Shown: piece after piece, positions 13,195-29,104 of the stretch | How positions within the stretch are numbered: position 1 is the first letter of the stretch | Layout: every line of letters starts with the position of its first letter | NCBI GenBank assembly: GCA_951406725.2 | Contig: OX597827.1 | Span: 24,366,001 to 24,430,000, forward strand | DNA: 64,000 nt | Direction: 5' to 3' | Source: Octopus vulgaris | Lineage: Eukaryota | Made by a program: the position numbers and the translations under genes | Notes under the pieces: generated by a model | What the model saw: only the letters and a program-made list of their open reading frames with translations | What the model was told of the DNA's origin: nothing | Databases searched by the model: none

Positions 13195-13293
13195 CTATTT
13201 TTTTATTGATGCCAAAGCTGCCGTAAATCGAAGGGTATCCACCAAAGACATGTTCATTTTCTTCTCCATGCATTGATAAAAATATTCAGGAGC
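13195..13293 (-). CDS. Terminal coding exon E of TIR-SAM gene
   Basis: Acceptor tttttgtgttttgcag, phase 0, APEYFYQCMEKKMNMSLVDTLRFTAALASIKK then TAG. Phase matches exon D, and the sequence fits the helical end of a SAM-like domain. Confidence 0.88.
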   Translation of the reverse strand, partial: APEYFYQCMEKKMNMSLVDTLRFTAALASIKK

Positions 13294-13344
13294 CTGCAAA
13301 ACACAAAAATGAATTTACAAAAGATTGTTTATAAAATCTACACA

Positions 13345-13780
13345 TACAGGAGTGGCTGTGTGGTAAGTAGCTTGCTTACCAACCACATGGTTCCGGGTTC
13401 AGTCCCACTGCGTGGCACCTTGGGCAAGTGTCTTCTACTATAGCATCGGTCCGACCAAAGCCTTGTGAGTGGATTTGGTAGATGGAAACTGAAAGAAGTC
13501 CGTCGTATATATATATATATATATATATATATATATATATATATATATATATATATATATATATATATATATATATATATATATATATATATATATATAT
13601 ATATATATATGTATATGTGTGTGCCTGTGTTTGTCCCTCCAACATCGCATGACAACCGATGGATGTGTTTATTACGTCCCCGTCACTTAGCGGCTCGGCA
13701 AGAGAGTTCGATAGAATAAGTACTAGGCTTACAAAGAATAAGTCCTGACTGAAACAAATAAAAGAATAAAAAAGAATATA
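13345..13780 (+). mobile_element. tRNA-headed SINE family A with internal (TA)n
   Basis: A box TGGCTGTGTGG, B box GGTTCAGTCCC, body, (TA)n/(TG)n, 3' gactgaaacaa(a/g)taaaaga. Confidence 0.9.
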
Positions 13781-14665
13781 AATTTGACATGGGCGATTCT
13801 TTTTTGTCTAAGGATTCGCAGTCAAACGGCTGGGTGAAACTGCACGAAAAATTACACAGATGTGTTGAATGATCCAGTGGTGTTGCTGGGCTTTGTATTT
13901 TTTCATAGCTCCCATAGTTACTGAGATAATCTACTATAATAATACTCTTGTGTTTATGAGCGAGAAAGGAAGGGGTGATAGATGAATAAGGAAGGAAGAG
14001 GTGATGTCATACTTGGTAGTGGGATGATGAAAATTGTACGCTGAAAAAATAAATCAAACAGTGTTTCAACTCTGTGTGTATGTAAAAGTGGTGAATGTGA
14101 ATGTGTGTATATGTGTGTGTGTGCATGTGTGTGATGTGTTTGTGTGTGTGTGCACGTGCAATGGAAGTTGGATGGTTCATCTTTGTTTGCTTAGTATTTG
14201 GGTTTATTTTTGATTTGGTTGAATCTTGGTTTTTTTTTTTTCGCTGGTCAATTATTTTTAGCATTTTGATAGAACAAAGTCATTCTAAAATTGTTTGTTA
14301 ATGTAAGCATGCCCAAACAAGTCGAATCCTTATACAGAGCAGGTTTTGTGTGAAACTGGGCTTAGCTGCTGGTGGATTAATAAAATTTCATGAGAAAAAC
14401 ACAACTCTGTCATTGATTTTTCACTTCTGATTGAATTCAAGTGAGTAAATAATTATATCATATTAAACAATTAAACAACTAGTTTTGTCCCAATAATCCA
14501 TTAATGGATTCCAAAGTTTTTTTATCTTAACAAGTCATTAAGTGCAGGCATAGTTGCATGGTTAAGACGTTCATTTCCTAATCACATGATTTTGTGGTGA
14601 AGGACCTTAAGCAAGTATTTTCTACTATAGATCCAGAGCCTTGTGAGTGGATCTGAAAGAAATCC

Positions 14666-15110
14666 GAGTGGCTGTGTGGTAAGTAGCTTGGTTACCAACC
14701 ACATGGTTCTGGGTTCAGTCCCACTGCGTGGCACCTTGGGCAAGTGTCTTCTACTATATTCATGGGCCGACCAAAGGCTTGTGAATGGATTTGGTAGACG
14801 GAAACTGAAAGAAGCCTATCGCATACATACATATATATATATATATATATATATATATATACACATATACATATATATATATACATACATACATATATGT
14901 TTGTGTGTCTGTGTTTGTCCCCCCAAAATCGCTTGACAACCCATGCTGGCTTGTTTATGCCCCCTGTAACTTAGCAGTTCAGCAAAAGAGACCAATAGAA
15001 TAAGTACTAGGCTTACAAAGTATAAGTCCTGGGGTCGATTTGCTTGACTAAAGGTCGTACTCCAGCATGGTCACAGTCAAATGACTGAAACAAATAAATA
15101 AAAGAATATA
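14666..15110 (+). mobile_element. SINE family A
   Basis: Full-length match; an older partial copy lies at 14545-14660. Confidence 0.9.
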
Positions 15111-15124
15111 TATATATATATATA

Positions 15125-15700
15125 TAAGTTACTGGAAGGGTAGAAAGAGGGGATGTTTCCCACTGCAGTACTTAACCTGAGCTTTAGGCTATCTACACTC
15201 TTAAATTGTAGATAGCTGGATAGGAATTCCATTGTCAAAGAGAACTGGAACTGCTACCTTCTAAAATTCTCTGCTAAGGATTTATCTCAATTATTCCCTC
15301 TCTGAAGATGGAATAGTCCGCTTATAGATAAGTTACCTGTGTCTGCTGAGAAATGTATGATGTGTTCCTATTCTCGAAACAGCTGTAAGAAACTATCTGT
15401 ACTCCTTCATTTTTAGCTCGTTTTTATCCGTTTTAATATTATTCGGGACAGTGGGATTGTCTTGGCTTGATATTAATTGGTGCCGTGTGTCCTGTGTGCA
15501 TCACTAAGACGAGGCATAAGTGGGACCACCCACTATAAATAAAGGGAATTTGTGACTAAAAGTCCATTACAGAATAGCCGAATGCCTCGTCATCTATTAT
15601 ATTCTAACGATTCTGTTGTAACAACTCTACCACCATCTTTAGATGTATATAAATTCCCTGCTCTAAACTGATACCCATTTGGTTGCCCGTTCATTCTTTC
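15125..15700 (+). mobile_element. Penelope-like element remnant
   Basis: Begins in (TA)n and carries a minimal hammerhead; no intact ORF. Confidence 0.4.
15296..15392 (+). ncRNA. Type I hammerhead motif in Penelope-like remnant
   Basis: tct-CTGAAGA-tggaatag...ctattctc-GAAA-cagctg-TA-aga. Palindromic stem III ACAGCTGT, GUA site; stem II closing pair imperfect. Confidence 0.6.
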
Positions 15701-15711
15701 TTTCTACTGTA

Positions 15712-27067: not shown

Positions 27068-27460
27068 AGGCGTAGGAGTGGCTGTGTGGTAAGTAGCTTG
27101 CTTACAAACCACATGGTTCCAGGTTCAGTCCCAGTGCGTGGCACCTTGGGCAAGTGTCTTCTACTATAGCCTCAGGCCGACCAAAGCCTTGTGAGTGGAT
27201 TTGGTAGACGGAAACTGAAAAAAGCCTGTCGTATAGATGTATACATATATGTATATGTGTATACATGTTTGTGTGTCTGTGTTTGTTCCCCAACATGCTG
27301 GTGTGTTTATATCCCAGTAACTTAGTGGTTCGGCAAAAGAGACTGATAGAATAAGTACTAGGCTTACAAAGAATAAGTCCTGGGGTCGATTTGCTCGACT
27401 AAAAAGGCGGTGCTCCAGCATGGCCACAGTCAAATGACTGAAACAAGTAAAAGAGAGAGT
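27068..27460 (+). mobile_element. SINE family A
   Basis: Full-length match, ending 60 nt from the exon B donor. Confidence 0.9.
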
Positions 27461-27519
27461 ATACTGATGCAGCAGATACATTCTAAAGTTTGGGTCAATG
27501 ATGATATTTCTTCACAAAC

Positions 27520-27723
27520 CTTGAGCTTCACCAGGTGAATATTGTCCACGTCCACGAAGTTCTTTTATAAGTCCACCAAAACTCTTCTCAAAAGGGTACT
27601 TCCCGCTAAAATCAAAGAACAATTTTGCTCCAAGCATGGTACCAAGCCAACCATCTGGATTGTATTTTTTTTGCATCATCATTGGAATGTAGTCTTTACG
27701 TAATCGAAATGTGTATTCAGCTT
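27520..27723 (-). CDS. Exon B of TIR-SAM gene (TIR domain, second part)
   Basis: Acceptor ttgtctttaaatcattttag, donor AAG|gtttgt (in-phase alternative donor at 27532), phase 1 to 1. Encodes (E)AEYTFRLRKDYIPMMMQKKYNPDGWLGTMLGAKLFFDFSGKYPFEKSFGGLIKELRGRGQYSPGEAQ, with EAEY and Y-x-P-D-G-W-L-G motifs. Confidence 0.93.
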
Positions 27724-27889
27724 CTAAAATGATTTAAAGACAAAGAAAAGCAATTAAATTCTTTTAAATGTTGCGGAAAAGTAATGAAGTAAAAATCCTT
27801 AATGAGTAAAAATGAGAAAAACCATAACATTTTTCTTCTGGTTTTGTCAAGAAGAAGTTGACGCTGCCTGTGATAATCGCTATCACTTA

Positions 27890-28108
27890 ATCCCTTAGCA
27901 GAGTACTTTATTGCATGTAATGCTTATTAATACACATTGTTTCAGTTAATCCTGCATTATCTCATAGCTTTGAGATTTTGATGAGGTGAGTGGTTATTTT
28001 TAGAATGACAGTGTAGGGTAGGTGTGAGAAACCCGATCTGGCCAGTTTGGATATAAAATGGCTAGAATATTCGGGCCGGATATGGCAGGTTTAAATGCTG
28101 AAGGATTA
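27890..28108. mobile_element. piggyBac-type MITE (second family)
   Basis: ttaatcccttagca...tgctgaaggattaa; reverse-oriented relative of 3452-3662. Confidence 0.65.
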
Positions 28109-28962
28109 ATGTATCATTTTAATTTAATACATAAGGCCAGGTGGGGAGCTGACAGAATTGTTAGCACATCTGGCAAAATGCTCAGTGGGATTTCACCCGT
28201 ATTTACATCCTGAATTCAAATACTCCAGGGATCAACTGACTTCCATCCTTTCAGAGTTGAGAAAAGTACCAGTTGAACATTGGGGTGGATATAACTGACT
28301 TAGCATGTCCCCTGAAATAGCTGGCCTTGTGCCTAAATTCAAAAGCAATTTAGGCAGAAAGCTTGCAGTTTATAGGGGCAGGGTTAGTTGATATCATTGT
28401 CTAACCCCACCCTTCAAATTTCTGCAACTTAATTCTTAGCCAGAATCAGCAAAACTTATGTATGTGAGAAGGCTGTACCTTTTGAATCACAGATACAACC
28501 CACCTGTTGGGCTTCAGTACAGTTTCTGTCTACCCTTGCAGGCCACACCTCAGCATTGCTGCACACAATTAATTGAAACCACTAAAATATATGATGATGA
28601 TGATGACCATCATCATATGGTGTGCTGGTGCCACATAAAAAGCAATCAAGCTTGTGTCACATATACAGCATCCCCCAATGGTGTCACATGTAAAGCATTG
28701 GTGCTGGTGCCATATAAAAAGCACCCAACACTCTCCGTAAAGTGGTTGGCATTAGGAAGGGCATCAAGCTGTTGAAACCAGGCCAGAAATGGAACCTGGT
28801 GTGGCTCCTGGCCTTGCCAGCTTCTGTCAGAACATCCAACCTATACCAGCATGGAAAACAAACATTAAATCATGATGATGATGATGATGATGATTATGGT
28901 GTGTTCTGTTATTTTCCTGTCAGCTATAGTATATCTTATATGCTATGATTTTCACTTCTCAC

Positions 28963-29104
28963 CTGTACGGCAGCTAGGGCTTTGTTTGTATTTCTCAGAC
29001 ATGCAAATTAAAACAACAGCAGCGTTTTCTATACCACTAGCCATGGCTTGTAAGTTCGAAGGCCCCATACAGTCAACATCTATCCATAACTGGTAACCTT
29101 CTTC
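28963..29104 (-). CDS. Exon A of TIR-SAM gene (TIR domain, first part)
   Basis: Acceptor cttctcttttctttcag, donor CAG|gtgaga, 142 nt, phase 0 to 1. Encodes EEGYQLWIDVDCMGPSNLQAMASGIENAAVVLICMSEKYKQSPSCRT, a TIR_2 signature (G-Y-x-x-W-I-D; M-A-x-x-I-E-x-A-x-V-V-L-I-C-M-S-x-x-Y-x-x-S-x-x-C-R-x-E). Confidence 0.93.

Follow-up and report, generated by a model that had tools for sequence, protein, structure and literature searches.

The 3′ end of a spliced octopus gene for an ARM-TIR-SAM protein of TIR clade 10, a possible NAD+ hydrolase

The window analysed here is a 64,000-nucleotide stretch of the Octopus vulgaris genome (G000:C14:24366001-24430000), whose minus strand holds the last exons of a spliced gene encoding a TIR-domain protein of 664 amino acids (AA). 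Five coding exons lie in the window (Table 1), separated by four GT-AG introns with entry phases of 0-1-1-2-0, and their 699 nt encode 232 AA and a stop codon, as had been proposed in an earlier reading of the DNA letters (hereafter the sequence-only reading). The codon of the glutamate in the motif CRT-E-AEY, Glu480, is split as G/AA between positions 28963 and 27723. The exons, their phases and the split codon are genuine, and the five exons are not a product of chance because their translation matches LOC106868605 of Octopus bimaculoides almost letter for letter. A search with exon 11 retrieved 45 proteins among 58 candidates, with the same O. bimaculoides protein at the top. Exon 10 alone matches Pfam TIR_2 (E 2.4e-8); the other four exons, too short for such a scan, gave no Pfam match singly.

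Mapping of LOC106868605 (P0001, 664 AA) onto the genome located the exons outside the window and gave a gene model that spans 206,557 nt, with 14 coding exons, 13 GT-AG introns and a single terminal stop. The gene reaches 156 kb beyond the window, and its intron 1 measures 89 kb (C14:24496415-24585682). The model protein, for which the splice sites of the upstream exons were picked to fit P0001, is identical to P0001 at 658 of 664 positions and differs at six. The first strand and helix of the TIR are encoded by exon 9 (C14:24433192-24433098), 38 kb upstream, and tblastn detected no additional exon of the gene within 29105-64000. The nine upstream exons add an ARM solenoid and the start of the TIR, so that what had been described as a TIR-SAM protein is an ARM-TIR-SAM protein. 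Nor is the gene hidden, as had been claimed, since its orthologs are annotated in NCBI and present in two published tables. The O. bimaculoides isoform in one of these, the TIR atlas (PMC13142454), has another first exon, suggesting that the gene has alternative starts.

Table 1 Features of the ARM-TIR-SAM gene in and around the window (window positions unless a contig is named).
Feature	Position	Strand	Description
Coding exon 10 of 14 (exon A)	28963..29104	-	142 nt; AA 433-479 and first base of the Glu480 codon; TIR beta-B, BB loop (with octopod Pro447), alpha-B, beta-C and start of alpha-C
Coding exon 11 (exon B)	27520..27723	-	204 nt; rest of the Glu480 codon, TIR alpha-C to alpha-E; AA 480-547
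Coding exon 12 (exon C)	24826..25012	-	187 nt; disordered linker and SAM start; AA 548-610
Coding exon 13 (exon D)	20648..20714	-	67 nt; SAM middle part; AA 610-632
Coding exon 14 (exon E)	13195..13293	-	99 nt; final SAM helices and stop codon; AA 633-664
Portion of intron 9 (37,993 nt in all)	29105..64000	-	extends beyond the window to exon 9 at C14:24433098
Exons 1-9	C14:24433098-24585751	-	outside the window; N-terminus, ARM solenoid, TIR beta-A/alpha-A
Likely 3′ untranslated region	11918..13194	-	AATAAA hexamers at 12528, 12152, 12144 and 11953; far end presumed

Transcript-like contigs from two studies show splicing at the junction through the Glu480 codon. This junction is crossed with consecutive record positions by one contig each in run X14 (contig 9, 1475-1618 followed by 1619-1822) and run X9 (contig 23, 986-1189 followed by 1190-1333), both passing straight from exon to exon; the two runs belong to two studies with two organism labels. 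Run X12 covers exons 10 and 11 on separate contigs, and the DNA-like run X17, in which exon 10 is without cover, reads from exon into intron. The four runs were aligned at this junction only, no run with the sequence is on record as RNA, and X14 and X9 are RNA by guess, so that the splicing predicted in the sequence-only reading is borne out for one of the four introns. Contig 9 of run X14 is long enough to fit the likely 3′ untranslated region, contigs being unable to mark a transcript end.

Structural modelling in AlphaFold2 on a 79-row alignment (mean predicted local distance difference test score (pLDDT) 82.4, predicted TM-score 0.71), combined with sequence profiles, predicted the order ARM-TIR-linker-SAM for the 664-AA protein. 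The model comprises a disordered N-terminus (1-64), a helical solenoid of the ARM type (73-396), the TIR (411-537), a disordered linker (545-588, pLDDT <50) and a helical C-terminal domain (596-663); a Foldseek search with the complete model gave ARM-dominated matches only. The proposed succession of TIR, linker and SAM-like domain is upheld, as the C-terminal domain in a second model has a SAM fold (Z 10.1 against the SARM1 SAM, root-mean-square deviation 2.2 over 67 residues). The family profile matches the SAMs of SARM1 (SAM1), liprin-beta and sphingomyelin synthase, and a single C-terminal SAM_3 was found in 10 of 14 members at E up to 0.1. Conserved residues of the ARM part (Asn215, Glu298, Asn312, Lys313, Trp345 and Phe349) may mark a binding groove or a TIR contact. 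Between Octopus and Argonauta, identity amounts to 97% in the TIR, 91% in the ARM, 83% in the SAM and 61% in the linker, and the TIR being the most conserved domain appears to speak against decay.

Of the 218 TIRs of the family, 216 carry Glu480, and the other residues of the putative pocket are almost as constant, namely Ser415 and Tyr416 (211), Asp441 (210), Cys477 (209) and Arg478 (210). The family profile places Glu480 opposite the catalytic glutamates of TIR-1 (WVHKE) and Cat1 (WCWDE), a match of sequence-profile register and not a structural superposition, in agreement with the equivalence to the SARM1 catalytic Glu that had been proposed. Cat1, an NADase, is also the best TIR-only sequence match (E 4e-7). 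Four residues before the Glu (Glu-4) the family carries Asn (147 of 218), Ser (39) or other small residues and an aromatic one in a single case (Tyr); the octopus residue is Ser476, and the aromatic of the WxxxE cyclase feature is absent. Since the family lacks the WxxxE Trp at this position, linear ADP-ribose (ADPR) is the predicted product, perhaps with lower activity. Indeed, an aromatic at Glu-4 is needed for cyclisation in bacterial TIRs, and all cyclising TIRs in one survey possess it (Manik et al., bioRxiv 2022.05.07.491051).

Relatives of the octopus protein (84 proteins of 1,198 candidates) were named from all main mollusc classes searched, an annelid, a brachiopod, a flatworm, echinoderms, hemichordates and amphioxus, and among vertebrates from lampreys, gar, eel, tarpon and halosaur (P0056, P0062, P0065, P0067, P0070 and P0089). 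No tetrapod, insect or nematode name occurs among the 84, in a word-limited search that is not proof of absence. Similar proteins are found outside animals in amoebae and cryptophytes. HMMER returned 443 representatives at E up to 1e-30; relaxing the threshold to 0.001 raised the count to 5,044, with unrelated ARM and TIR proteins among them. The order ARM-TIR-SAM was detected in 190 of 228 collected homologs with domain profiles built from the family itself. A quick, midpoint-rooted tree of 39 chosen rows of these 228 grouped the octopus protein with Aplysia LOC101845869 in a clade that spans the molluscs (support of 100 in the Shimodaira-Hasegawa-like approximate likelihood ratio test), beside the deuterostome members. 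The tarpon member is named 'NAD(+) hydrolase SARM1' in UniRef despite belonging to the ARM-TIR-SAM family, and an ESM Atlas search led to unnamed rotifer TIR_2 clusters.

This family has been catalogued before. The TIR atlas lists the O. bimaculoides protein EP00106_P001990 as V-ATPase_H_N + TIR + SAM_3 in Clade_10 (PMC13142454, Supp. Table 1, the 16 Octopus rows considered in full, together with 28 of the 408 Clade_10 rows), and we follow the paper's placement of this ortholog. Amoebozoan and cryptophyte rows of the clade show ARM-TIR and TIR-SAM_1 orders. The atlas calls clade 10 uncharacterised and names no function for it, and in the passages covered the ARM-TIR-SAM order is not discussed. 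Surveys of molluscs tabulate the Aplysia ortholog LOC101845869 in an ARM-TIR class, but file this class as Toll-like receptor (TLR) adaptors of unknown function, with the SAM and the catalytic Glu unmentioned in the passages covered (PMC4346834; PMC9334734). A TIR-SAM hybrid gene of amphioxus, reported in 2008 with cDNA support (model Brafl1_131196, PMC2575513), likewise has the TIR before the SAM, but no ARM part is named in the text covered. Four other papers served as background only (PMC6321704, PMC6836662, PMC9153377 and PMC2858798). A functional study of the family was not found in the literature searched, subscription papers, Gerdol 2017 (ecTIR-DC classification) and bioRxiv supplements being beyond its reach. 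The description 'uncharacterised' agrees with this result, and overall the sequence-only reading is partly supported. The octopus gene is a member of a wide, already catalogued but unstudied family and stands a reasonable chance of encoding an NADase.

The gene structure, a single splice junction, the domain order, the folds as predicted, the family range and the pocket conservation are established here; we infer that the protein is catalytic and which product it makes, that the ARM gates it, that the SAM drives its assembly and that it serves in immunity or cell death. The interpretation we prefer, with the chances about evenly balanced, is that the locus encodes the C-terminal part of a clade 10 ARM-TIR-SAM protein acting as an ARM-gated NAD+ hydrolase activated by self-association. 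By analogy with SARM1, an enzyme of nerve death in which ARM autoinhibition, a SAM oligomer and TIR self-association have been described (PMC8635717), the ARM solenoid would restrain the TIR until a ligand is bound. The SAM on its flexible tether would concentrate the chains, TIR-TIR contacts aided by the SAM would assemble the active site, and Glu480 would hydrolyse NAD+ mainly to linear ADPR. The protein would then work like SARM1 without being SARM1.

Several observations weigh against this interpretation. The ARM region is by sequence most like Vac8 and catenins, no nicotinamide mononucleotide site of the SARM1 kind is shown in it, and the C-terminal domain of P0001 falls under the Pfam SAM cut-offs. 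The predicted TIR fold fits scaffolds no less than enzymes, among them Hydra TRR-2 (Z 18.0), IL-1RAcPb (16.5), MyD88 (16.0) and SARM1 (15.4), and does not tell the two apart. Loss of the Glu-4 Trp reduces the activity of SARM1 and AbTir (bioRxiv 2022.05.07.491051). Two further departures are seen in the octopods, namely Val418, where 195 of 218 members carry Trp, and Pro447, at a BB-loop position that is Gly in 194 of 218 and has low pLDDT in the model. The SARM1 mutation G601P lowers both activity and puncta (PMC8635717, PMC8266388), and the octopod changes may weaken the enzyme. Position 447 corresponds to SARM1 Ala600 in the HMMER alignment, one residue ahead of Gly601, with a register uncertain by one residue. 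Moreover, the alpha-C Glu is a weak marker of NADase activity. It occurs in 16 of 19 other readable TIR loci of the octopus genome (22 were found, three lacking alpha-C in the exon), mostly of TLR type. Most non-TLR animal TIRs keep it, yet in E. coli no more than 12 of the 61 Glu-bearing animal TIRs assayed showed activity, and the Glu also occurs in IL-1R9, IL-1R10 and TLR2, for which no activity was detected (Hurieva et al., bioRxiv 10.64898/2026.04.20.719644). The premise, implicit in the sequence-only reading, that TLR TIRs lack this Glu is contradicted by these octopus loci and by TLR2. In favour of the hydrolase interpretation, the same screen reported Glu-dependent activity in non-TLR animal TIRs including one from a mollusc, with ARM among the domains named in a legend; its text names no octopus protein, and a family member may be among those assayed.

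The octopod copy could instead be a non-catalytic or weak scaffold whose TIR binds TLRs, MyD88-like adaptors or a canonical paralog and tunes signalling, the Glu being kept for structure or by descent, which we consider possible but less probable than the ARM-gated hydrolase. Pro447 is confined to Octopus and Argonauta (2 of 218), Trp418 is lost in both and in their sister sequence P0003, and a paralog on contig C4 retains the canonical motifs, all of which fits a scaffold, as do the receptor and adaptor TIRs at the top of the fold matches, the adaptor class of the mollusc surveys and the 49 inactive proteins of the published screen. However, the entire pocket, beyond the Glu alone, is conserved across the family, Gly447 is absent in 24 of 218 members, suggesting that the site tolerates change, and the HMMER register sets Pro447 on Ala600 and not on Gly601. 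The Ala600 position is occupied by Pro in many TIRs. The negative results of the screen, moreover, concern isolated TIRs and three products only (bioRxiv 10.64898/2026.04.20.719644). From the same source, in which the active animal TIRs gave mostly cyclic ADPR (cADPR) and most did not deplete NAD+, with mollusc, rotifer and cryptophyte TIRs (taxa with clade-10-like proteins) in the active set, arises the idea of a signalling enzyme of low turnover that would supply a downstream receptor with cADPR or a different ADPR isomer, without NAD+ depletion. We regard this as rather improbable, given the small residues at Glu-4 against the aromatics of the surveyed cyclising TIRs.

A rearranged SARM1 ortholog is very improbable. 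The three module types are shared, the alpha-C Glu is in register, the predicted SAM resembles SARM1 SAM1, SARM1 SAM1 and TIR-1 are the top matches of the TIR-SAM profile, and the profile of the ARM part also reaches TIR-1 (whole-chain E 1.9e-8). However, the octopus protein has one SAM after its TIR and not two before it, a different BB loop and no Trp at Glu-4, and its profile matches the SARM1 TIR alone only at E 0.07. The motifs of the SARM1 group (clade 8, group 24), E(R/K)LEAG in the BB loop and WxHxE (PMC7075850), EKLEAG and WVHKE in SARM1 itself, are replaced by DCMGPS and SPSCRTE. O. bimaculoides also has a separate SAM-SAM-TIR gene in clade 8, while its ARM-TIR-SAM protein is in clade 10 (PMC13142454), excluding SARM1 orthology as far as the published tree goes. 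The claim of a separate SARM1 rests on O. bimaculoides, as SARM1 did not show in a TIR_2 search of the O. vulgaris genome, and a pattern search of that genome for the SARM1 motifs gave four matches against seven in a reversed control, none in a TIR frame. The label 'SARM-like' for the TIR does not hold, given its clade and a predicted fold no nearer to SARM1 than to MyD88 or plant TIRs.

As a single gene this one is unremarkable; what matters is its family, which is widespread in eukaryotes, reaches vertebrates and has a near-invariant catalytic pocket. If its members are ARM-gated NADases, the design of SARM1 arose twice, and animals beyond the usual models would own a second NAD+-destroying immune or death switch. 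More speculatively, and on balance unlikely, the ARM-TIR-SAM proteins of clade 10 could represent a second, older SARM1-like machine, an NAD+ hydrolase gated by a ligand and assembled through the SAM. This machine would date back to early eukaryotes, would have arisen independently of SARM1 from the three shared module types in a different arrangement, and would have persisted in molluscs, echinoderms, amphioxus, lamprey and early-branching fish, with octopods having a canonical copy and a BB-loop-altered copy tuning or blocking it. The paralog (C4:176275190-176317900 (+), loci L009-L011) has the ARM-TIR-SAM order, an intron likewise passing through the Glu codon, and canonical AA and BB loop motifs. 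It is a better first candidate for an assay than the altered octopod copy, and the two paralogs provide a ready-made paired test.

Elsewhere in the genome, a cluster of single-exon TLR-like genes (C3:22.89-23.16 Mb, loci L012-L019) has TIRs with a WCxFE motif like that of TLR4, making these genes candidate cADPR producers too. In the window, intron 9 contains a near-perfect tandem duplication of about 1.7 kb at 30819-33884 (1,382 nt at 99.4%), either a recent duplication or an assembly artefact. A purine-rich 47-bp tandem array in two inverted blocks (41500-45130) yields long spurious low-complexity open reading frames, such as one of 798 codons at 43874-41481. Broken remnants resembling reverse transcriptases of long interspersed nuclear elements were recognised by eye at 21150-22900 and 51999-52796, two scanned frames giving no Pfam match. 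Intron 13 carries DNA transposon remnants at 15700-17700, with a DDE_3 match at 16156-16476 (+) (E 6e-12), and nearby broken minus-strand frames, without a Pfam match, presumably resemble mariner.

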